Source: an uncultured Bacilli bacterium
GTDB lineage: Bacteria > Bacillota_I > Bacilli_A > RF39 > UBA660
Length of the DNA: 64,000 nt
Reading direction: 5' to 3'
NCBI GenBank assembly: GCA_934096125.1
Contig: CAKOLB010000006.1
Coordinates: 778 to 64,777 of the forward strand
The notes below the pieces were generated by a model. That model did not search any database. It was not told the origin of the DNA and worked only from the letters and a program-made list of their open reading frames with translations. Position 1 is the stretch's first letter. Every line of letters starts with the position of its first letter. Shown here in pieces: positions 8,356 through 32,815 of the stretch. Position numbers and translations under genes: made by a program.

Positions 8356-8862
8356 TTATGCCATTTTCTTAGACATAACTAAACTCATTCGAGCCATATC
8401 TTCATTTTTTCTTTTTAAAACTAAGGCAGCATCCTTTTCCCCAAGCAACTCTTTAATCATAAACTCTGGTAAATGATAAAGACCTTCAACCGAAAATATT
8501 CCTTGACATACCAGTAAATTACGGACCTTTGTATCAACATATATTCCCTGGAAATCCGCTAAAGCCTCAGCATATTTATTAAACTTTTCTTTAGTATCAA
8601 TACCATACTTTTTTAATGAAAACACATAAGACTTCATCACATCTATTAAACTATCAGCATACATGACAGACACTTCATCACTACCAGGAAACTTATCATC
8701 ACAAGCTTTAACAACCGTAGTCAAAAAGTCACTTGGAAGTATTTCTCCAAGCACTTCATAATAACCTCGGTCTTGAAAAGATATATCTGAACTATAAAAT
8801 ATAGCATTTACAAAACTCATTCGCTCTCCCCTCATATTTTTATTCTCCATTTCCTCCTTCAA
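8356..8862 (-). CDS. hypothetical protein
   Basis: ORF only; no family recognised. The likely start is the internal ATG of MSFVNAIFY, about 8820, which has an AGGGGAG SD. Confidence 0.3.
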   Translation of the reverse strand: MKEEMENKNMRGERMSFVNAIFYSSDISFQDRGYYEVLGEILPSDFLTTVVKACDDKFPGSDEVSVMYADSLIDVMKSYVFSLKKYGIDTKEKFNKYAEALADFQGIYVDTKVRNLLVCQGIFSVEGLYHLPEFMIKELLGEKDAALVLKRKNEDMARMSLVMSKKMA

Positions 8863-24277: not shown

Positions 24278-25699
24278 ATGAATAAACTTACGCACTTTCT
24301 ACAAAATGAATTTAAAAACACTCCCGATTTAATTACTAAAACAATAAACATAAACCATTTTAATATAATATATATAATGTATTTAGAAACAATCAGCAGT
24401 AGTAACAGAGTTAATGACTACATATTAAAAGAACTAGTAAATAACAAAGATAAAATAAATAAAAATAATATTGAATCTTTTATCGCCGGTCCTAATAGCG
24501 TACAAATTGAAAATAAAGATAAATGCAAGTACTACTTAACAAATGGATACACTCTTGTAATTATCAAGGATAAAATAATCGCAGTTGAAACCAAAGCAGA
24601 TTTAACTCGCGCTATCGAAGGTAGTACAGTGGAGTCATCAATCAATGGTCCGAAAGACTCTTTTACTGAAAACATTCAAACCAATATCGGCCTTATTAAA
24701 AGAAGAATTAAATCTAATACTTTAAAAACAGAAAATAAAGTAATTGGTCGCAAAACTTTAACAGCTATAAGTCTTTTATATTTTGAAGATATCACTGATA
24801 AAAAAATTATTAAAAACATCCAAGAAAGACTTGAAAACATTGACATCGATGGCATCGTCGACTCTAGTTCTCTTGGCTTTTTAATCGATAATCAAAACTC
24901 TGTCTATCCAACCTTTGTGCAAACTGAAAGACCAGATACTGCTGCTACTTCCCTTTTAGAAGGTAAAATAGTCATTTTAGTAGACACATCTCCCTTTGCT
25001 ATCATTCTACCCGCCTTTTTCATCGATTTTATCAATCCAACCGTTGACAACTACAACAAAAGTCCTAATATCAACTTCATTAAAATATTAAGATTTTCAA
25101 CCTTTTTAATCTCCATGATTGCCCCAGCCCTCTACATTGCTATCATGAACTACAACGAAGAAACTATTCCAACAAGCCTACTTTTAAATTTTGCTATCCA
25201 GCGCGGTGGAGTTCCATTCCCAACCATCATTGAAACTCTCATCATGCTAATAGTCTGCGAAATTTTAAGAGAAAGTGATTTGCGTTTTCCATCCAGCTAC
25301 GGTTCAACTGTTTCCATCCTTGGAGCAATTGTTCTAGGTGAAGCATCAGTATCCGCCGGAATAGCCTCTCCGATAACTATCATTGTTATTGCTATTACCT
25401 TTATCTCTAGTCTAACCTTTACAACAATTGAGATAAATAATGCCTTAAGATACTTCCGTTTTATCTTTATCATATTTAGTGGTTTTCTAGGTCTTTATGG
25501 CATAACCCTAGCCTTCTTATACTTTTTAATCTACACAGTTAGCACCAGCTCTCTAACATTCCCTTACTTTGCCCCAATATCTCCCTTTAATAAAGAGTAC
25601 TTTAATGCATCAGTCTTAAAACAAGATATCAAAAAAGACATTAAAAGAAGCACGCTTTTTACCCATAAAAATATAATCAAACAAAAGGAGGTCAAATGA
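24278..25699 (+). CDS. spore germination protein, GerA/GerKA family (A subunit)
   Basis: GPKDSFTENIQTNIGLIKRRIKSN and C-terminal TM helices are typical of GerAA. Confidence 0.85.
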   Translation: MNKLTHFLQNEFKNTPDLITKTININHFNIIYIMYLETISSSNRVNDYILKELVNNKDKINKNNIESFIAGPNSVQIENKDKCKYYLTNGYTLVIIKDKIIAVETKADLTRAIEGSTVESSINGPKDSFTENIQTNIGLIKRRIKSNTLKTENKVIGRKTLTAISLLYFEDITDKKIIKNIQERLENIDIDGIVDSSSLGFLIDNQNSVYPTFVQTERPDTAATSLLEGKIVILVDTSPFAIILPAFFIDFINPTVDNYNKSPNINFIKILRFSTFLISMIAPALYIAIMNYNEETIPTSLLLNFAIQRGGVPFPTIIETLIMLIVCEILRESDLRFPSSYGSTVSILGAIVLGEASVSAGIASPITIIVIAITFISSLTFTTIEINNALRYFRFIFIIFSGFLGLYGITLAFLYFLIYTVSTSSLTFPYFAPISPFNKEYFNASVLKQDIKKDIKRSTLFTHKNIIKQKEVK

Positions 25700-26772
25700 A
25701 AAAAATAATCATTTTACTTGTTGTTTTAAGTTTCACATCCGCTTGCTACGACTACAAAGAAATTAATGATTTAGCAGTTATAAATGCAATTGGTATTGAC
25801 TATCAAGATGAAAAATACATAGTTACTTTAGAAGTATTAAATGATAAAATCGATAAAAACTCATCTAAAATTACATCTTACACTAAAAAAGGAAGTGGAA
25901 AAACTTTAACAGAAGCCATAGAAGCATCCGCTGATAAACTAGAAAATCAAGCCTACTACAATCATATCAAATTAATGATTATCAGCAAAGAAATAGCAGA
26001 AAATAAATTTAAAACAATCATTGACTTCTTTCTTCGTAATACTTATTTTAGGGAAAACTTCTATCTAGTATCAAGTTTAAGCACTTCACCCGAAGACCTA
26101 TTAGAAAACACTGGCAAAATAAATCCTATTGCAAGTAATAACATTATCAAAATGCTTGAAAACAACAAATATTCATCTAACATCGCTGTTTTAAAAACCT
26201 TTGATAAAATCATAGAAGAAGTAATAACCTTTGGAATTGATACTTCCTTTTCAAATATAACTATCAATGATAATGAATTTAAGATCGACGGGTTAACAGT
26301 TTTTCATAATGAAACCTACCAAGGATTGCTAGATAATAACATAGCCAAGATATATAACATTTTAAACGATGAGTATTACCGGCCAAGTTTTAGCGCCCAA
26401 ATAAATGATGTCCCTTTTTCCATTTCTCTTCTAACTGGAAAACCAAATGTTACTATCACTAAAAATCAAATAAATATCACGGGAAATGTGCAAGGCAAAA
26501 TACTTGATAATGCATCCGAAATAGATATCAAAAATACAAATAATTTAGAAAAGATAAATGCAAAATTCACCAAAAGTATTAATGAAGAGTTCACAAGCTT
26601 TTTTAAAATCGTCCAAAAATCAAATGCAGATATCCTAGGGCTTTCCCGGCAAAACTATATTAAAACCCGCCACAAAAATAATAGTTTCTGGCACCATTTA
26701 AATATTTCTTCCAACATAAAATTTACGATAAATAAAAAAGGTTTAATATACGAGGTAAAAGATGAAAACTAA
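25696..26772 (+). CDS. spore germination lipoprotein, Ger(x)C family
   Basis: Lipobox LSFTSAC and GerC-family length. Overlaps the A subunit by 4 nt. Confidence 0.75.
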   Translation: MKKIIILLVVLSFTSACYDYKEINDLAVINAIGIDYQDEKYIVTLEVLNDKIDKNSSKITSYTKKGSGKTLTEAIEASADKLENQAYYNHIKLMIISKEIAENKFKTIIDFFLRNTYFRENFYLVSSLSTSPEDLLENTGKINPIASNNIIKMLENNKYSSNIAVLKTFDKIIEEVITFGIDTSFSNITINDNEFKIDGLTVFHNETYQGLLDNNIAKIYNILNDEYYRPSFSAQINDVPFSISLLTGKPNVTITKNQINITGNVQGKILDNASEIDIKNTNNLEKINAKFTKSINEEFTSFFKIVQKSNADILGLSRQNYIKTRHKNNSFWHHLNISSNIKFTINKKGLIYEVKDEN

Positions 26773-27784
26773 TTCTAATCTATTAACATATTTTCTCACT
26801 CGCATTTTATTTTTAGGCGGTGGAATATCTATGATGTATGAACAAAGTCAAAGAGATGCCTACATTTCTTGTTTTTTAGGTACTCTTCTTGGAATTGCTA
26901 TAATCTATATATTCTCCTATTTCTATCAAAGGATTAATATGCCACTAAAAGTCTATCTTCAAAAAAAATCTATCATAAACATCATTTTAAAAATAGTTTA
27001 TTCTTTTTATATCATATTTCTCATTTTTATTATTCTTATTATATTATCTACCTTTATATATTCTTACTTTCTTCCCTTTACTCCATCCTTTTTATCTTGT
27101 CTTCCCTTTATATTTCTAGCTTGTTATAAATGTCCAAAAATCTCAAGTACTATATATTATATTGGTTTTATATTACTTATCTTAAGTTTATCTATAATTA
27201 TATTAAAAACAAGCTTGTTATCATCTGAACTTAATATTCAAAATATTTTACCAATTATTAATGTAAAGCCATCAAAAATCATATTAGCATCATTTATCTA
27301 TGCCATTTTATCAACTGCTCCATTTCTTCTAACTATTGGCGAGCCATCAACCTTTAATCAAAATATTAAATATTACATACTAGCATCATTTATGAATCTT
27401 TTAGTTATAACAACTCTTATCCTTGTTCTTGGTGATATGGTTTATATCTATAGTTATCCAGAATATGCCGGTCTTCGGAAAATAAGGTTCTTTAACTTCA
27501 TTGAAAACATTGAAAACTTCATCAGCATCAGTTGGTTCTACGACATATTTATTGCCTTATCACTTGCTAGTCTAAAAATTAAAGATATATTTAATACTTC
27601 CAAAACTAACATTTCATTTACCATATCTTTAATCACTTTATTTATAGTTAGTAAATACATCTCCACTAATTTTGCCACTTCCATTCAAATCTATAAAGTA
27701 TTTCCCTTTATCCTATTTGCAGCCATGCTTCTCATTTTAATTCTTTTAATTATTAAAACAAACATGAAAAAACACAATGACTAA
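26762..27784 (+). CDS. spore germination protein, Ger(x)B family (APC-type permease)
   Basis: 340-aa polytopic membrane protein. Third gene of the A-C-B operon, as in gerK. Confidence 0.7.
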   Translation: MKTNSNLLTYFLTRILFLGGGISMMYEQSQRDAYISCFLGTLLGIAIIYIFSYFYQRINMPLKVYLQKKSIINIILKIVYSFYIIFLIFIILIILSTFIYSYFLPFTPSFLSCLPFIFLACYKCPKISSTIYYIGFILLILSLSIIILKTSLLSSELNIQNILPIINVKPSKIILASFIYAILSTAPFLLTIGEPSTFNQNIKYYILASFMNLLVITTLILVLGDMVYIYSYPEYAGLRKIRFFNFIENIENFISISWFYDIFIALSLASLKIKDIFNTSKTNISFTISLITLFIVSKYISTNFATSIQIYKVFPFILFAAMLLILILLIIKTNMKKHND

Positions 27785-27802
27785 CCACTGTGTTTCTTTT
27801 TA

Positions 27803-27994
27803 TTAAAGAGACCTTTTATTTTTCTTATGAGAATTTTTAATTCCTTCTTCTTTTTTAATTCTTCTTTCTACCCCAGGTTTAACAGCATATTTTCTTTTTT
27901 TAAATTCTGAAGGGAGTCCACTTCTTGCCACTTTAGCTTTAAATTTCTTTAGTGCTACATCAACATTCCCATTTTGCACAATAACCTTTGTCAT
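27803..27994 (-). CDS. rpsU: 30S ribosomal protein S21
   Basis: 63 aa; VIVQNGNVDVALKKFKAKVARSGL..E.KKR..Y.KP matches S21. Confidence 0.85.
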   Translation of the reverse strand: MTKVIVQNGNVDVALKKFKAKVARSGLPSEFKKRKYAVKPGVERRIKKEEGIKNSHKKNKRSL

Positions 27995-28089
27995 TTTCAG
28001 CCCTCCCTTCTCGTTTTCCTAACCTATTATAGCAAAAGAAAATATGCTTTTCAACCATTTAAAAGGCACTTTTCTCTTGTTTTTCAAAT

Positions 28090-28233
28090 TTAACACGTTT
28101 TTAGAAGTGATTTTAACCCCATACCTAAAGCATAACCAATATCATATAAAAACTGACCAGCACTTCTTAAGGCATTTATAACCGAAGAAGACAAACCTCC
28201 AACAATTTTACTTAGTTCTTTATCACTTAGCAT
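28090..28233 (-). CDS. class II bacteriocin-like prepeptide B with double-glycine leader (47 aa, not in ORF track)
   Basis: Manual translation: MLSDKELSKIVGG-LSSSVINALRSAGQFLYDIGYALGMGLKSLLKTC. Its ATG overlaps the stop of peptide A (TAATG), and the leader is LS..ELS.I.GG. Confidence 0.6.
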   Translation of the reverse strand: MLSDKELSKIVGGLSSSVINALRSAGQFLYDIGYALGMGLKSLLKTC

Positions 28234-28379
28234 TAACTTCCCTCCTTACTACATACACCACTAGCATTTAAAAAGCCTGCAATAATGCCTGTCACAAAAG
28301 CTCCAATACCACTAAGTACAGTCCAAAATGCTGAGCCACCCCCAATAATACTTCCAAGTTCTTTAGTTTCTAACTCCAT
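28233..28379 (-). CDS. class II bacteriocin-like prepeptide A with double-glycine leader (48 aa, not in ORF track)
   Basis: Manual translation: MELETKELGSIIGG-GSAFWTVLSGIGAFVTGIIAGFLNASGVCSKEGS. AGGAGG sits 5 nt upstream, and the mature peptide has GxxxG motifs. Confidence 0.6.
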   Translation of the reverse strand: MELETKELGSIIGGGSAFWTVLSGIGAFVTGIIAGFLNASGVCSKEGS

Positions 28380-28388
28380 AACATCCTC

Positions 28389-28790
28389 CTAAAGCAATAG
28401 TTTTTTTAATTTTTCATACCCCTTTTCTTCATTATAAAATATACTCATTGATACAACCTGATTATCAATAAAATTTGCATTTATTTTTATCTTCACCTCT
28501 TGATAATTATCCATAAAAACTTCATCTAACATATAATCACTAATACTTTCAATTCTAAATTCATACCTTTTATTATCTATTTTTATATATTTTATATTAT
28601 TTAGTATTTCTCTATCATCTATTCTTAAGTTTATATTTAACAAATTATCATAAGCATACCCTTTTGTCACATAAATATCACAAAAAGATTTATCAAGCAT
28701 ATAAACCATAAAAATAATAGCAATCAAGAAAAATATAATTAACTTCAGTTTATAGTGATATTTAATATTAATAAGCTCTAAAATACTCAT
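28389..28790 (-). CDS. small single-TM protein (putative bacteriocin accessory or immunity protein)
   Basis: N-terminal TM helix, about 100 aa outside. Overlaps the ABC transporter by 4 nt and precedes the prepeptides. Confidence 0.35.
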   Translation of the reverse strand: MSILELINIKYHYKLKLIIFFLIAIIFMVYMLDKSFCDIYVTKGYAYDNLLNINLRIDDREILNNIKYIKIDNKRYEFRIESISDYMLDEVFMDNYQEVKIKINANFIDNQVVSMSIFYNEEKGYEKLKKLLL

Positions 28791-30811
28791 AACTTAATTT
28801 CTCTTTCAAAAAACTTCCCATATCTTTTATGACTTATATAAATAATGGTTTTTCCTAAAAAATATTCTCGCATCATCTTCAAAATATTTTTTTCTTTATT
28901 TTGATCAACTTCACTTAAGGCCTCATCTAAAATAAGGATATTAAACTCTGCCATCAAGGCTCTAGCTAGCATAATTCTTTGTTTTTCCCCCCCAGATATA
29001 TCATGAGAATTATTACTTATCCAAGTATAATACCGCACCGGTTTATTATTAACAATTTCATCTACCCCACAAATCTTACATATTTCATAAAATTTATCTA
29101 AAGAAACATCTCTATCTAGCAAAATATTATCTTTAATTGTTCCACTAAAAATCTTTTCATCCTGTCCACAATATAAAATATTATCTCTAACTTGCTTCAA
29201 ACTTAAATCTCGTATATTTATTCCGCCTAAATAAATATCTCCTTTGTAATCCGTGATGTTTTGAAGTAAAATATTACAAAAAGTTGACTTTCCACATCCA
29301 CTATTTCCTTTTAAAAGTACTACTTCCCCTTCTTTAATTAAAGTTGTAAAATTTTGAAACAGAATACCACTTCCCTCATAACTAAAAGATAAACTTGAAA
29401 TATAAAGATCAAAGTGGTTATTATGAAAATCTTTACCTAGCATTTCCTCCGGAATACTCAAAAAATCATTAACTTTTAAAAGTACCGCCCGAGCATGACA
29501 AATATTTGGAACTTCTCTTAAAAATGCATCAATCTTTGCATAAACCATCACCATAAATGTATTAAAAGTAATTAAATTAGCAATAGTTATACTACCATTA
29601 TAAATATTTAAAAAAGCTAAGGCATTAAAAAGAAAAAGACCACCTTCTTTTAAACTAAAAGAAACTACTTCCAAATCATTTAAGTACCATTTTAAACTAA
29701 AGGTATCATAAATATATGCCCCTAAAACATTTTTAGTTTTCTCCAAAAACCTCCCAGTTTCTCTTAAATTTTTAATCGATGGCATCATTGTTAAATCTTC
29801 AATCACTTTATTTTGAAAATTACTTGCTACTTCCATATTTTTATAAAGCCTCTCATGTAGTTTATAACTTTTACCAAAACTAACTACTACATATAAAAAA
29901 AGCACTAAAACAAAGACTAAAAATAAGGACTTAGAAATCTTACTCAAAATAATAAATACACCGATTACAACTAATAAATCTGGAACAATCTTGATTAGAA
30001 AAAAGACCACTAAATTTTTAATATAAATCAAATCTTGAATGCGAACCATTACCTCTCCAACTTGCCTTGAAGAAATAACTTTTAAAGGGAGATTATATAT
30101 ATGACTTAAAAAATCAGCAATAAGCACCGCATCAATATTTTTAGTTAAATGATTTTCCAAATAGCTTTCAAGTTTAAACAAAAATATTCTAGCAAGCAAA
30201 ATAAATAGAAAAATTATAATTGTAAGTTTTATGAAAGAAAGGGATGCATTACTATTTATAAGCTTTAAAACCACTTGAAAGAAAAAACCATAACATAAAG
30301 TGTAAAAGGTTAACAAAAGCATTACCATAAGTATCAGGGTAACAAGACGCCTCTCCCCTTTTAACACTTTCCTTAGTATTTTATTTATCGAAATAGCATT
30401 TTTTAAAAGCACAATTTTTTGCTTAGGATAAAACACAATGACAATGCCACTCCATAACTCCTTAAATTTATCTAGCCCCATTATCACCTTACCTTTCGCT
30501 GGATCCATTAATACAACTTTATTTTTTGTGTTTTTCACAACCACCACATAATGATATCCATATTTTAAATTTAAGTGAGCAATACAAGGAAATTTGGAAA
30601 CCTCATCTATATTTTTAAGCTTAAGACCCATCGCATCAAACCCATACTTCCGACTTGCTAAAATCATATTCAAAGCTTTTGTTCCCTCTTTATTAGTATC
30701 AACATCAAGCCTAATTTTCTCAAGTGAAACATAACCTTTGTAATAGGAAATAAGCCAAAATAGGCAGCATGGTCCACAATCAGATGCATCTCTTTGTCTT
30801 ACAACTTTCAT
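28787..30811 (-). CDS. bacteriocin-processing ABC transporter with N-terminal C39 peptidase domain
   Basis: C39 DASDCGPCC with His and Asp downstream. Six TM helices; NBD with GNSGCGKST, LSGGEKQRIMLARAL and ILDEALSEVD. Confidence 0.85.
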   Translation of the reverse strand: MKVVRQRDASDCGPCCLFWLISYYKGYVSLEKIRLDVDTNKEGTKALNMILASRKYGFDAMGLKLKNIDEVSKFPCIAHLNLKYGYHYVVVVKNTKNKVVLMDPAKGKVIMGLDKFKELWSGIVIVFYPKQKIVLLKNAISINKILRKVLKGERRLVTLILMVMLLLTFYTLCYGFFFQVVLKLINSNASLSFIKLTIIIFLFILLARIFLFKLESYLENHLTKNIDAVLIADFLSHIYNLPLKVISSRQVGEVMVRIQDLIYIKNLVVFFLIKIVPDLLVVIGVFIILSKISKSLFLVFVLVLFLYVVVSFGKSYKLHERLYKNMEVASNFQNKVIEDLTMMPSIKNLRETGRFLEKTKNVLGAYIYDTFSLKWYLNDLEVVSFSLKEGGLFLFNALAFLNIYNGSITIANLITFNTFMVMVYAKIDAFLREVPNICHARAVLLKVNDFLSIPEEMLGKDFHNNHFDLYISSLSFSYEGSGILFQNFTTLIKEGEVVLLKGNSGCGKSTFCNILLQNITDYKGDIYLGGINIRDLSLKQVRDNILYCGQDEKIFSGTIKDNILLDRDVSLDKFYEICKICGVDEIVNNKPVRYYTWISNNSHDISGGEKQRIMLARALMAEFNILILDEALSEVDQNKEKNILKMMREYFLGKTIIYISHKRYGKFFEREIKL

Positions 30812-30876
30812 ATATTTTTTCTCCCTTCACTTTTTTTATTTTCCCAAATAAAAAAATGGATATTTTTTTCATCCAT

Positions 30877-31287
30877 TTATTTACACTTTTTAACACATTT
30901 CTTTTTCAAAAACAAAAAATAAAACACAATAATAAGAACGAGTGCAAGCCCAAGCGTTACCATCATTTTCTCCAAATGATAATCATTAGGTGCTTCCACC
31001 TCCAGCATCTGGGCTTCATTTTCTTTAAAGACAGCCACTTCCATTTTCTTCTTAGTTACAACTAAAGTATATCTTTCTATATTCTCCCCATCAAATACAT
31101 CTACATAAACATTATTTATATCTTCATCTAGCACATTATTACTAATTGCTACACTTTCATTTCCCTTTAACTTATAACTAATATCAAGCGTCTCCTCATT
31201 TTCATCAACTACAACTGTATAAACATTAACATATTTATCAAATAGAAGCCCCATAGTCCCATTTAAAACCTCTAAATCTTCCAGCAT
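30877..31287 (-). CDS. hypothetical C-terminally membrane-anchored protein
   Basis: Acidic N-terminus and a C-terminal TM helix with a KKKCVKKCK tail. Confidence 0.3.
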   Translation of the reverse strand: MLEDLEVLNGTMGLLFDKYVNVYTVVVDENEETLDISYKLKGNESVAISNNVLDEDINNVYVDVFDGENIERYTLVVTKKKMEVAVFKENEAQMLEVEAPNDYHLEKMMVTLGLALVLIIVFYFLFLKKKCVKKCK

Positions 31288-31325: not shown

Positions 31326-32408
31326 TTAAATAATTTTCAAAAGAATTTCATTCATAATATAAATATAAATTGGATTAATATAGATATATCCCCTTTTTTT
31401 AATTAACTCTTTACTTTTTAAAAGCGGTTCTAAATTATATTCTTTTTCAATATCAACTTGATATTTCTCAAAAAACTTAGCTATATTTATTCCTTCTAAC
31501 TTCCTTAAGCCAAGCATTATTTCATAATCCATCTTCTCTTTTTTACCAAGTATTTCCCTACTTTTTACAAAATTACCTAGTAAATAATCTTTCAAACTTT
31601 TTGTATTAGTATATCTAACATCATCGATATAACCACTAGCCCCAAGACCAAACCCATAATATTCTTCATTATTCCAGTATACAAGATTATGTTTACTTTC
31701 GTATCCTTTTACAGCAAAGTTACTCACCTCATAATGATTAGCACCACTTAAAGTATTACAAATTAAATTATACATATCATAATCAAGTTCTTCTTCTATA
31801 TAACTTACATCTTTAACATAAGCCTTGGTATGTTTTTCTAAAATTAAACTATATGTACTTATATGCTCTGGCTTAAGTTCTAAAAAAAGTTCTAAATCTC
31901 TTTTTAAAGTCTTTATACTCTCCCCAGGCAAGGCATACATCAAATCCAAATTAATATTGTTAAACCCAAGTTTTCGGCACAACTTTATTTTTTCTTTTGT
32001 ATCTTTAAAATCATTACTTCTTTCCATAAATTCTAAATTCTTTTTATCAAAAGACTCAATTCCAATGCTCAATCTATTTACTTTATAATTTTTCAAAAGC
32101 AAAAGTAGTTCTTCCGTTATATCCCCAATATTACATTCAAAAGTAAACTCTTCAAGAGAGCTTGTATCAATAACTTTTAACATATCCAAAAGTTTCTTTA
32201 TCTCCTGAATTGATAACGCACTTGGAGTACCACCCCCAATATAAATGGTTCTTATTTTTTCCCCCATGTATCTATCATTTATCTCATTTTTTAACGCTTT
32301 CAAATAAACATAGACCCATTTTTCATTATAGATAAACTTACAAAAATCACAGTAGGAACAAATCGTTTTACAAAAAGGAATATGGATATATATTGCTCTA
32401 GCCATCAT
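31326..32408 (-). CDS. hemW: radical SAM heme chaperone HemW (HemN-like)
   Basis: CKTICSYCDF radical-SAM cluster and a HemN C-terminal domain. Downstream of lepA, as in Bacillus. Confidence 0.85.
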   Translation of the reverse strand: MMARAIYIHIPFCKTICSYCDFCKFIYNEKWVYVYLKALKNEINDRYMGEKIRTIYIGGGTPSALSIQEIKKLLDMLKVIDTSSLEEFTFECNIGDITEELLLLLKNYKVNRLSIGIESFDKKNLEFMERSNDFKDTKEKIKLCRKLGFNNINLDLMYALPGESIKTLKRDLELFLELKPEHISTYSLILEKHTKAYVKDVSYIEEELDYDMYNLICNTLSGANHYEVSNFAVKGYESKHNLVYWNNEEYYGFGLGASGYIDDVRYTNTKSLKDYLLGNFVKSREILGKKEKMDYEIMLGLRKLEGINIAKFFEKYQVDIEKEYNLEPLLKSKELIKKRGYIYINPIYIYIMNEILLKII

Positions 32409-32815
32409 ACTTCCTTTCGCAAAGTTCTCTTAGCTACTTCATTAACCATTTCCTCTGTTACAAGTTTTGGTTTACTCTTATGAAGAAGCAAAAACCTCTC
32501 TGTTAAATCATTTAAAACTTTCCTTTTTGTCGCCTTTTGTTCATCTGCAATTGCCTCAATACTTTCTCCATTTATTAACATATTAAAACTCTTTAATATT
32601 CTACTTTCATCTTCCTCACTAAGATTAACATCATAACTTCGCATTCTTCTTAAAACTTGATCATATTTATTTTCATCAATTCTTCGAAGCTTAACTAAAA
32701 GCAGATGATTTAATTCAGATGGAAGCATATCCATAAGTCTAGCAATACTCTTTAAAGACTTCCCGTCTATATATAAATCAGCTAAAAAAAGGATTAAACC
32801 ATTATCTTTAATCAT
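32405..32815 (-). CDS. hypothetical protein (possible HTH)
   Basis: 136 aa between lepA and hemW, with overlapping stop and start codons at both ends. Confidence 0.3.
   Translation of the reverse strand: MIKDNGLILFLADLYIDGKSLKSIARLMDMLPSELNHLLLVKLRRIDENKYDQVLRRMRSYDVNLSEEDESRILKSFNMLINGESIEAIADEQKATKRKVLNDLTERFLLLHKSKPKLVTEEMVNEVAKRTLRKEV

Follow-up and report, generated by a model that had tools for sequence, protein, structure and literature searches.

A candidate class IIb-like two-peptide bacteriocin operon upstream of rpsU in uncultured gut Bacilli

The window analyzed here, a 64-kb stretch of DNA from an uncultured Bacilli bacterium, contains a four-gene operon that is best, and probably correctly, read as encoding a two-peptide, class IIb-like bacteriocin. 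Judging from their sequences, the two peptides, PepA and PepB, look like a new family of this type. According to this reading, pepA and pepB would be translated as precursors with double-glycine leaders of 14 and 13 residues, the C39 domain of an ABC transporter would cut after Gly-Gly, and the same transporter would export both 34-residue peptides, probably assisted by a cotranslated 133-aa membrane protein. In the target membrane, helix A (hydrophobic) and helix B (cationic and amphipathic) would then pair via invariant GxxxG motifs, and the A-B pair would probably act on a membrane-protein receptor, making the target membrane leaky and killing the target cell. In favor of the bacteriocin reading are the intact peptidase and ATPase motifs, the consensus leaders, the invariant GxxxG motifs, dN/dS values of 0.03 to 0.20, the weak kinship of pepA with PF10439, the predicted helix and amphipathicity of pepB, the presence of the cassette in 13 lineages, a third gene (ORF3) in relatives, and the membrane-fusion-protein-like fold of the putative accessory protein. 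Against it are the lack of an immunity gene in the window and of a regulator within 10 kb, the sub-threshold scores with known families, the deep and fixed conservation, and the slightly short leaders.

The four genes, like rpsU, its promoter, and the ribosome-binding sites described below, are on the minus strand. The 674-aa exporter is encoded at 28787..30811, and its stop overlaps (ATGA) the start of the gene for the 133-aa single-pass membrane protein (28389..28790), at the coordinates given in the original prediction. The two minigenes that follow were likewise found in the sequence exactly as first described: pepA (28233..28379) encodes a 48-aa precursor, and pepB (28090..28233) encodes a 47-aa precursor. 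The predicted AGGAGG ribosome-binding site was seen 5 nt before the ATG of pepA (28385..28390), and pepB has an AGGAGG of its own, 7 nt before its ATG (28241..28246). The pepA stop and the pepB start overlap by one base (TAATG) in the same orientation, as had been noticed earlier. The cassette had been placed between hemW and rpsU, and both flanks were identified there, with hemW upstream (31326..32408) and rpsU, the gene for ribosomal protein S21, at 27803..27994 (Pfam Ribosomal_S21, 1.2e-13; TIGR00030). A sigma-70-type rpsU promoter (TTGAAA, 17 nt, TG-TATAAT; 11/12 matches) was located at 28026..28054, and a terminator was found after rpsU (27767..27798). The hairpin between pepB and rpsU did not exceed shuffled sequence in stability (z −0.75), and no convincing terminator was found there. 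An Rfam search gave no match near the cassette, and PADLOC returned only generic ABC matches. The description of the peptides as unannotated was correct in that they are unnamed, but identical sequences have already been called as genes in public catalogues, which hold the exact pepA sequence on 85 contigs, the exact pepB sequence on 35, and pepB variants differing at 1 or 2 residues on 59 further contigs.

The double-glycine leaders proposed for both peptides (pepA, 28338..28379; pepB, 28195..28233) fit the consensus L-12, E-8, L-7, I-4, G-2, G-1 of 87 pepB and 19 pepA family sequences. A relaxed double-glycine-leader pattern matched 2 of the 606 small open reading frames in the window, pepA and pepB only, and gave no matches in 20 shuffles; the leaders are more than chance. 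With 14 and 13 residues they are slightly shorter than the 15 to 30 residues quoted for class IIb leaders (PMC2850506), which they otherwise resemble. The pepA family consists of about 19 clusters and the pepB family of about 92, all of them unnamed and from metagenomes or metagenome-assembled genomes; a three-sequence alignment used as the seed for a metagenome scan recovered 7 loci. By sequence comparison, pepA and pepB are real genes under purifying selection (dN/dS among close relatives, 0.06 to 0.19 for pepA and 0.03 to 0.20 for pepB).

The mature parts of PepA (28236..28337) and PepB (28093..28194) are both 34 residues long with one Cys each, as the original prediction had it. The GxxxG motif had been ascribed to A, where it is present (GIIAG, G17-G21 in mature numbering), but not to A alone is it restricted, since B also carries a single one (GYALG, G20-G24). 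[quoted passage not shown] In precursor numbering, the invariant residues are I11, G14, G31, and G35 in pepA and G13, G33, and G37 in pepB, where L7, G12, R41, and C47 are nearly invariant; both glycines of the motif (G31/G35 and G33/G37) are thus among the invariant positions. The amphipathicity claimed for both peptides held for B (hydrophobic moment 0.53, p=0.004) but not for A, whose moment was not significant (p=0.07). Mature B is cationic (pI 9.1) with its Cys at the C terminus; mature A is neutral and hydrophobic (GRAVY 0.94), with a transmembrane-like helix. The calculated monoisotopic masses are 3302.67 Da for mature A (GSAFW...KEGS) and 3588.91 Da for mature B (LSSSV...LKTC). The AF2 model of pepB has a leader helix (residues 4 to 11) and a mature helix (13 to 46), and the mature part is thereby predicted to form one long helix.

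Neither peptide reached the curated threshold of any bacteriocin family searched, and a literature search for their motifs gave no match. A kinship was seen with PF10439 (Bacteriocin_IIc), which matched 9/18 pepA family members at E<=0.01 (best, 4.7e-5), in alignments spanning the leader plus a hydrophobic core rich in glycine. The pepA copy in the window scored 17.8 bits, below the gathering score of 27.1, and the sequences thus suggest that pepA is only distantly and weakly related to this family. The same profile did not match the pepB copy in the window and matched 1/50 pepB family members, and no Pfam domain was found in the pepB family. The best scores with the lactococcin G/enterocin 1071 families (NF038035 and NF038034) were 18.1 to 18.5 bits, short of the cutoff of 37, and the best alignments were mostly to the leader (residues 2 to 13 of pepB and 3 to 21 of pepA).

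That A and B act separately, as one-peptide (class IId-like) bacteriocins with a common exporter and no synergy, is in our assessment very unlikely. Loci that encode multiple double-glycine bacteriocins unrelated to one another are frequent (blp and rtg), and mature A and B do belong to different sequence families. However, A is directly followed by B in 13/13 lineages, the two genes overlap in the window, each peptide has one invariant GxxxG, and in one subclade the Cys changes position in both peptides together. Adjacency of the two co-oriented peptide genes in one operon is also how class IIb genes are arranged.

The large protein encoded upstream had been proposed to be a C39-peptidase ABC transporter, and this was well supported. 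It has an N-terminal C39 cysteine peptidase at residues 1 to about 135, a six-helix membrane domain, and a nucleotide-binding domain (Peptidase_C39, 3.4e-33; ABC_membrane, 3.8e-16; ABC_tran, 7.8e-25; all above the Pfam thresholds), and its full length matched PCAT1 (4ry2, 1.8e-69) and, as second-best solved relative, ComA (8hf7, 1.5e-62). The catalytic Gln, Cys (DCG), His (HYVV), and Asp (DPA) of the C39 domain are kept in every cassette lineage, and the Walker A, signature, Walker B, and H-loop motifs are present. An N-terminal C39 domain with Cys and His, fused to membrane and nucleotide-binding domains, is what defines a PCAT. Because it scored below the curated cutoffs of TIGR01193 (bacteriocin_ABC; 274 versus 524 bits) and TIGR03796 (298 versus 853 bits), the protein is, on its sequence, a divergent branch of the PCATs. 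The three-domain architecture and the C39 catalytic residues are common to this exporter, PCAT1 of Clostridium thermocellum, and ComA of Streptococcus pneumoniae. ComA is partnered by ComB, a protein of ∼450 aa, and PCAT1 is not known to have such a partner, whereas the exporter in the window is partnered by the 133-aa protein. PCATs mostly serve bacteriocin export, alone or with one accessory protein, although the functions of their substrates are diverse (PMC7018657).

The resemblance to ComA, together with sub-threshold ComC matches, might suggest a quorum-sensing role, with the peptides as ComC/BlpC-type pheromones and the transporter and its partner as a ComAB-like export pair. This is barely credible, as the mature peptides are long, hydrophobic, and helical with GxxxG, unlike pheromones, and the 10 kb on either side contained neither an Rgg regulator nor any histidine kinase, other kinase domain, or response regulator. 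Nor was a sensor or regulator found beside the cassette in other lineages.

The 133-aa protein had been offered as a candidate for immunity. Its fold resembles the beta-barrel of membrane-fusion (adaptor) proteins, and it is probably a minimal transport accessory of that kind rather than an immunity protein. As in the adaptors MacA, AcrA, EmrA, and Spr0693, an N-terminal membrane anchor precedes a beta-barrel domain, and a gene that directly follows and overlaps the ABC gene is a feature shared with membrane-fusion proteins. Unlike these proteins, it consists of the anchor and one barrel, with neither a coiled-coil hairpin nor a lipoyl domain. No sequence-level relationship to membrane-fusion proteins was found, and the Foldseek comparison with them was not significant. 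Comparable accessory proteins of bacteriocin systems, ComB, LcnD, and PlnH, are of the HlyD type. When the 133-aa sequence alone served as the query of a word-index search, 2 relatives were recovered; the family became visible only in an exhaustive search of representatives.

The cassette (ABC exporter, putative accessory protein, A, B) is present in 13 lineages; in 12/13, rpsU follows these four genes immediately and in the same orientation, and the upstream neighbor varies. The original prediction regarded it as an accessory insertion into a conserved housekeeping block, which these data do not support. Given that base composition did not differ between cassette and flanks (no GC anomaly), that rpsU adjacency is maintained, and that divergence of the ABC protein tracks that of S21 and YqeY (Spearman 0.83 and 0.85, respectively), the comparisons indicate that a clade of uncultured gut Bacilli has long inherited the cassette vertically, at a fixed place just upstream of rpsU. 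A recent horizontal insertion was rejected because of the flank-like base composition and the codivergence with neighbors. The cassette spans a deep divergence, with YqeY identity down to 46 to 50% and S21 identity down to 52 to 57%. In the species itself, pepA looks near-universal because 116 collection blocks list the exact sequence, compared with 83 for the LepA of the species. Bacteriocins typically vary between strains, and vertical conservation of this depth at a single site in the chromosome is unusual among them.

Such conservation bears on the possibility that the exported peptides serve the physiology of the producer (envelope or membrane, sporulation or germination, or cell-cell interaction) and not warfare. 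We consider this unlikely. The proteins of the cassette evolve much faster than its flanks (26 to 46% identity versus 71 to 74% for hemW and S21), which is typical of arms-race loci, and the paired GxxxG helices, the cationic amphipathic partner, and an immunity-like third gene in relatives fit a toxin. A physiological role would nevertheless be consistent with vertical inheritance beside rpsU over deep divergence, with the near-universal look of pepA, with the lack of an immunity gene, and with the diversity of PCAT substrates (PMC7018657).

Class IIb operons invariably include the immunity gene (PMC2850506). The original prediction noted no obvious dedicated immunity or regulatory gene, and none was found in the window. 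Between pepB and rpsU there are only 95 nt with a 25-codon stub (GTG start; VLNLKNKRKVPFKWLKSIFSFAIIG; 28019..28096, minus strand), which begins inside the last pepB codons and overlaps the rpsU promoter. ORF3, a gene for a small membrane protein, overlaps the end of pepB in five deep lineages, and the stub sits at the position of ORF3 in these distant relatives. A position overlapping the end of the last peptide gene is canonical for an immunity gene. The ORF3 product is a leaderless, membrane-anchored look-alike of peptide B, and from its sequence ORF3 is a candidate immunity gene in the five distant lineages. Profiles of pepB and ORF3 did not significantly match the stub, which is probably a nonfunctional remnant, and a profile search of all 64 kb turned up no gene resembling ORF3.

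The other immunity candidate named earlier, the neighboring 136-aa C-terminally anchored protein, was rejected. Its gene follows hemW and accompanies it, not the cassette, and is missing where the cassette is not beside hemW; it was absent beside the cassette in lineages L002, L006, L016, L020, L022, L024, and L026. Visual inspection also showed that an AT-rich hairpin and its T-run (about 30849..30876) separate the 136-aa gene from the ABC gene.

With a stub in place of the third gene of distant relatives, the locus could be decaying or silent in this sub-lineage, a toxin pair left nonfunctional without its immunity partner. Some related assemblies do have a frameshifted pepB (P0011 and P0092), and in one variant (P0115) the GG cleavage site has become GS. 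Such decay is nonetheless highly improbable, because all four genes and the catalytic motifs are intact, the 85 pepA contigs share one sequence, pepB is identical on 35 contigs or differs by 1 or 2 residues on the other 59, and the clade without the third gene shows dN/dS of 0.03 to 0.20.

A more elaborate form of the bacteriocin reading, which we regard as unlikely, is an ancient lineage-wide system with a covalent A-B heterodimer and an ancestral decoy immunity, both undescribed for class IIb. In that case, the active species may be an A-B heterodimer joined by an inter-peptide disulfide, with an expected mass of 6889.55 Da. Exactly one Cys is present in the mature peptide in 81/87 pepB and 17/19 pepA sequences, usually near the C terminus. 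In one subclade both C-terminal tails are lost, and the Cys of A instead lies inside its GxxxG (GIFCG), as does that of B (DIGCxVG) in 2/3 of the lineages of this subclade. The ancestral immunity protein may have been a copy of the C-terminal half of B that had no leader and was anchored in the membrane, where it would have captured peptide A on the producer's side. The sub-lineage of the window would then have lost the B-like gene yet kept the toxin pair under purifying selection.

Taken as a class IIb-like locus, the cassette was compared with the description of that class, which includes lactococcin G, enterocin 1071, and plantaricins EF and JK (PMC2850506). As in class IIb, two different small genes with double-glycine leaders lie side by side in one operon, and the mature peptides are predicted to be helical, within the range of about 25 to 40 residues, and carry a GxxxG each. 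As with lactococcin G, a dedicated C39-ABC exporter, which would remove the leaders, and a probable accessory protein are encoded in the same operon as the peptides. Unlike class IIb, the mature parts have no significant sequence similarity to known members (∼18 versus 37 bits with the lactococcin G families), the operon has no immunity gene, the putative accessory protein is only 133 aa, and each peptide has one conserved Cys. The locus is also chromosomal, deeply conserved, and fixed by rpsU, rather than strain-variable or plasmid-borne. What stood of the original proposal of a class IIb-like locus was the leader pair, the C39-ABC exporter, and the invariant GxxxG; the insertion and the assignment of immunity to the 133-aa or 136-aa protein did not.

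These results would add two uncharacterized peptide families and a minimal, ABC-coupled putative accessory family of ∼133 aa to the class II bacteriocin repertoire. The families belong to uncultured Bacilli of the human and animal gut, in which the sequences are unnamed, and the peptides are short and unmodified, so that direct synthesis is feasible. If the peptides do kill, this gut clade would carry a core, vertically inherited weapon instead of a mobile one.

The layout at the center of the original prediction, two double-glycine-leader peptides encoded next to a C39-ABC exporter, was confirmed as an observation. In minus-strand order the region contains hemW (31326..32408), the gene for a 136-aa C-terminally anchored protein (30877..31287), the gene for a 674-aa ABC transporter (28787..30811), the gene for a 133-aa protein, which overlaps the end of the ABC gene (28389..28790), pepA (48 aa; 28233..28379), pepB (47 aa; 28090..28233), and, downstream of pepB, rpsU (27803..27994). 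The sequence bears out the predicted ATGA and TAATG gene overlaps and the AGGAGG that precedes pepA by 5 nt; a second AGGAGG lies 7 nt ahead of pepB. Only two of the 606 small ORFs of the window matched a relaxed double-glycine-leader pattern, exactly pepA and pepB, and none did in 20 shuffles.

The cassette (the ABC transporter, 133-aa protein, pepA, and pepB genes) is probably its own transcription unit, because an AT-rich hairpin and T-run, identified by eye and not called by the scan tool, follow the gene for the 136-aa protein (approximately 30849..30876). Because the window has no terminator after pepB, the transcript may read through into rpsU as far as the terminator at the end of that gene (27767..27798). 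Only 95 nt separate pepB from rpsU, and they contain an rpsU promoter (11 of 12 matches), a 25-codon GTG stub, and a hairpin whose stability does not exceed that of shuffled sequence. An Rfam search of the region found nothing. Consistent with the earlier impression that no regulatory gene is obvious, the 10 kb flanking each side contain no kinase, response regulator, or Rgg-type gene in this species.

The ABC protein contains Peptidase_C39 (3.4e-33), ABC_membrane, and ABC_tran domains and, over its full length, aligns with both PCAT1 (4ry2, 1.8e-69) and ComA (8hf7, 1.5e-62). The Gln, Cys (DCG), His (HYVV), and Asp (DPA) of the C39 domain are conserved in the window protein and across all related lineages, and the ATPase motifs (Walker A, signature, Walker B, and H-loop) are likewise intact. 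Its score falls short of the curated cutoffs for the named NCBIfam subfamilies, and the protein is therefore, judged by its sequence, a divergent peptidase-containing ABC transporter (PCAT).

The 133-aa protein had no match in Pfam, NCBIfam, PADLOC, or PDB sequence searches; its family comprises 103 clusters, with full-length members of 121 to 154 aa. It had been put forward as a candidate immunity protein. However, the start of its gene overlaps the ABC stop codon and Gram-positive PCATs act alone or with one accessory protein (PMC7018657), and it is therefore regarded as a minimal transport accessory instead, with moderate confidence because the evidence is at the level of the fold only.

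Both pepA and pepB are real genes that define two families. In profile searches, relatives of pepB formed 92 clusters and relatives of pepA 19; all are of metagenome or MAG origin and are either unnamed or annotated as "hypothetical protein" of "Bacilli bacterium" or Candidatus Onthousia. All five cassette-region proteins occur with exactly the window sequences in a public collection, in which exact pepA was found on 85 contigs and exact pepB on 35, with variants of one or two residues on 59 more. The second cleavage-site Gly and G33/G37 (GxxxG) are invariant among 50 pepB sequences, and L7, G12, R41, and the C-terminal Cys are nearly so; I11, G14, and G31/G35 (GxxxG) are invariant among 18 pepA sequences. 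The leader consensus is L-12, E-8, L-7, I-4, G-2, and G-1. Among close relatives with unsaturated synonymous sites, dN/dS was 0.03 to 0.20 for both peptides.

Natural variants also occur. The cleavage site IIGG is changed to IIGS in pepA allele P0115 (5 contigs), and frameshifts near the C terminus give 75- to 76-aa products in the pepB relatives P0011 and P0092, suggesting occasional inactivation in some strains. In L006, one of the related cassette-bearing loci, the sole ATG of pepA (8484-8639) gives a six-residue leader, MDINGG; a full leader (IKQLDANELMDINGG) lies in frame downstream of a good AAAGGAG site but would need an ATT start. Another such locus, L002, may encode a third exported peptide, because an additional 36-aa ORF between the accessory gene and pepA (8447-8557) has an AG-type leader (MDLNNRDLASISAG) and a 22-aa mature part with a Cys.

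It had been proposed that the cassette is an accessory insertion into a housekeeping block, but the comparative data speak against a recent insertion. Uncultured gut Bacilli of 13 distinguishable lineages carry the cassette (from humans, including Hadza, rabbits, and other sources), and in 12 of these lineages a co-oriented rpsU follows pepB. The gap is mostly 65 to 280 nt and is longer only where it contains a PDDEXK_2-type gene or other insert. The upstream neighbor is variable (hemW, rsgA/rpe, ftsA-ftsZ, clpC, toxin-antitoxin genes, or an HTH regulator and recombinase). Pairwise ABC identity follows the identities of S21 and YqeY, which are encoded next to the cassette (Spearman 0.83 and 0.85), falling in the deepest range to 28 to 35% where S21 is at 52 to 57% and YqeY at 46 to 50%. 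Between the window and L001, L003, and L005, cassette proteins are 26 to 46% identical, compared to 71 to 74% for hemW and S21. Cassette GC (0.23 to 0.33) is the same as that of the flanks. Given the fixed rpsU adjacency, the codivergence, and the faster change than in the flanks, the cassette is old, vertically inherited, and fast evolving. Such deep vertical conservation beside rpsU also favors the main rival explanation, that the exported peptides serve a conserved role other than warfare.

The pepB-rpsU junction tolerates insertions, as some close relatives carry PDDEXK_2-type (transposase-like) sequences there: a gene at L001:8893-10081, a gene or fragments in the ∼1.1-kb gaps of L013 and L014, and a remnant at L005:8913-9044. 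The window rpsU is unusually divergent, since its S21 is only 68 to 77% identical to those of L001, L002, L003, L005, L006, L012, L016, L019, and L020; the S21 of L001 is 92 to 100% identical to those of L002, L003, L005, L012, L016, L019, and L020 and 64% identical to that of L006. The window lineage also lacks the yqeY that follows rpsU in most relatives and has instead a convergent gerA-type germination operon (24278-27784).

The 136-aa protein, the second immunity candidate of the original prediction, is not part of the system, because its gene stays with hemW and is absent from every cassette locus that lies elsewhere. Homologues follow hemW at L001:5391-5816, L003:5512-5919, L005:5391-5816, and L012:2352-2777, and within the clade this 135- to 141-aa protein is always found in that position. 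It has a C-terminal transmembrane anchor and a weak, below-threshold match to a cadherin-like beta-sandwich (0.0012), and it is fast evolving (33 to 36% identity versus 71 to 74% for hemW). Another 136-aa protein, encoded between lepA and hemW (32405-32815, minus strand), has no Pfam domain among precomputed hits; its counterparts in relatives are 162 to 212 aa long.

In class IIb operons the immunity gene is always found together with the two peptide genes (PMC2850506). The cassette of this genome differs in this respect: as the original prediction had suspected, the window has no dedicated immunity gene. The GTG stub (VLNLKNKRKVPFKWLKSIFSFAIIG; 28019-28096, minus strand) starts within the final codons of pepB and also overlaps the rpsU promoter. 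At its exact position, five deep lineages have an ORF of 38 to 55 aa that likewise starts inside the last codons of pepB (L006:8802-8954, L022:6150-6305, L024:6156-6272, L026:6153-6317, and L028:6183-6350). The product of this third gene has a basic N terminus and a single transmembrane helix and carries, at the C terminus, a G(R)xIGTxIR..C segment similar to the GxxxG-TAIRR..C part of pepB. The pepB profile aligned all five ORFs to one and the same region of pepB, with scores reached by 0 to 2 of 1,000 shuffles per sequence, and the next-best matches of a five-ORF profile were pepB ORFs. These reciprocal matches and the shuffle test identify the third gene product as related to the C-terminal half of pepB, but leaderless and membrane anchored. 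An immunity function, in which it could serve as a decoy for peptide A, is plausible. The start of the stub (M-L-x-L-K-N-K) resembles those of the third genes of L006 and L026, but no significant homology between stub and third gene was demonstrable. The third gene is absent from the window sub-lineage, yet the peptide pair there is under purifying selection, and the missing immunity gene is a further point in favor of a non-warfare role.

The mature peptides have different characters. Mature B, with a pI of 9.1 and a hydrophobic moment of 0.53 (P = 0.004), is a cationic, amphipathic peptide predicted to form one long helix; mature A is neutral, hydrophobic, and transmembrane-helix-like. Comparison with curated families did not place them, as neither pepA nor pepB reached any curated threshold. 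No family was found for pepB in these searches. The pepA peptide is a distant relative of PF10439 Bacteriocin_IIc, which half of its family (9 of 18 members) matched at E ≤ 0.01. PDB searches with both profiles found no solved bacteriocin, and the characteristic peptide motifs were not found in the searchable literature.

Exactly one Cys is present in the mature part of 81 of 87 pepB and 17 of 19 pepA sequences, mostly among the last few residues. The C-terminal tails have been lost from both peptides in the L002/L019/L020 subclade, where the Cys lies within the GxxxG of A (GIFCG or GVFCG) and, for two of these three lineages, also within that of B (DIGCxVG). This pattern is compatible with an interpeptide disulfide but is only a lead, because it reflects a single evolutionary event with one exception.

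A class IIb-like two-peptide bacteriocin is still the best explanation. The system would work as class IIb bacteriocins do but lies outside every curated bacteriocin sequence family, and for this reason and the missing immunity gene it is filed as a variant rather than a plain class IIb member. It would consist of a PCAT, a minimal accessory protein, and two double-glycine peptides. That these form an antimicrobial pair seems reasonably likely; that they are cleaved after GG and exported is predicted with much greater confidence.
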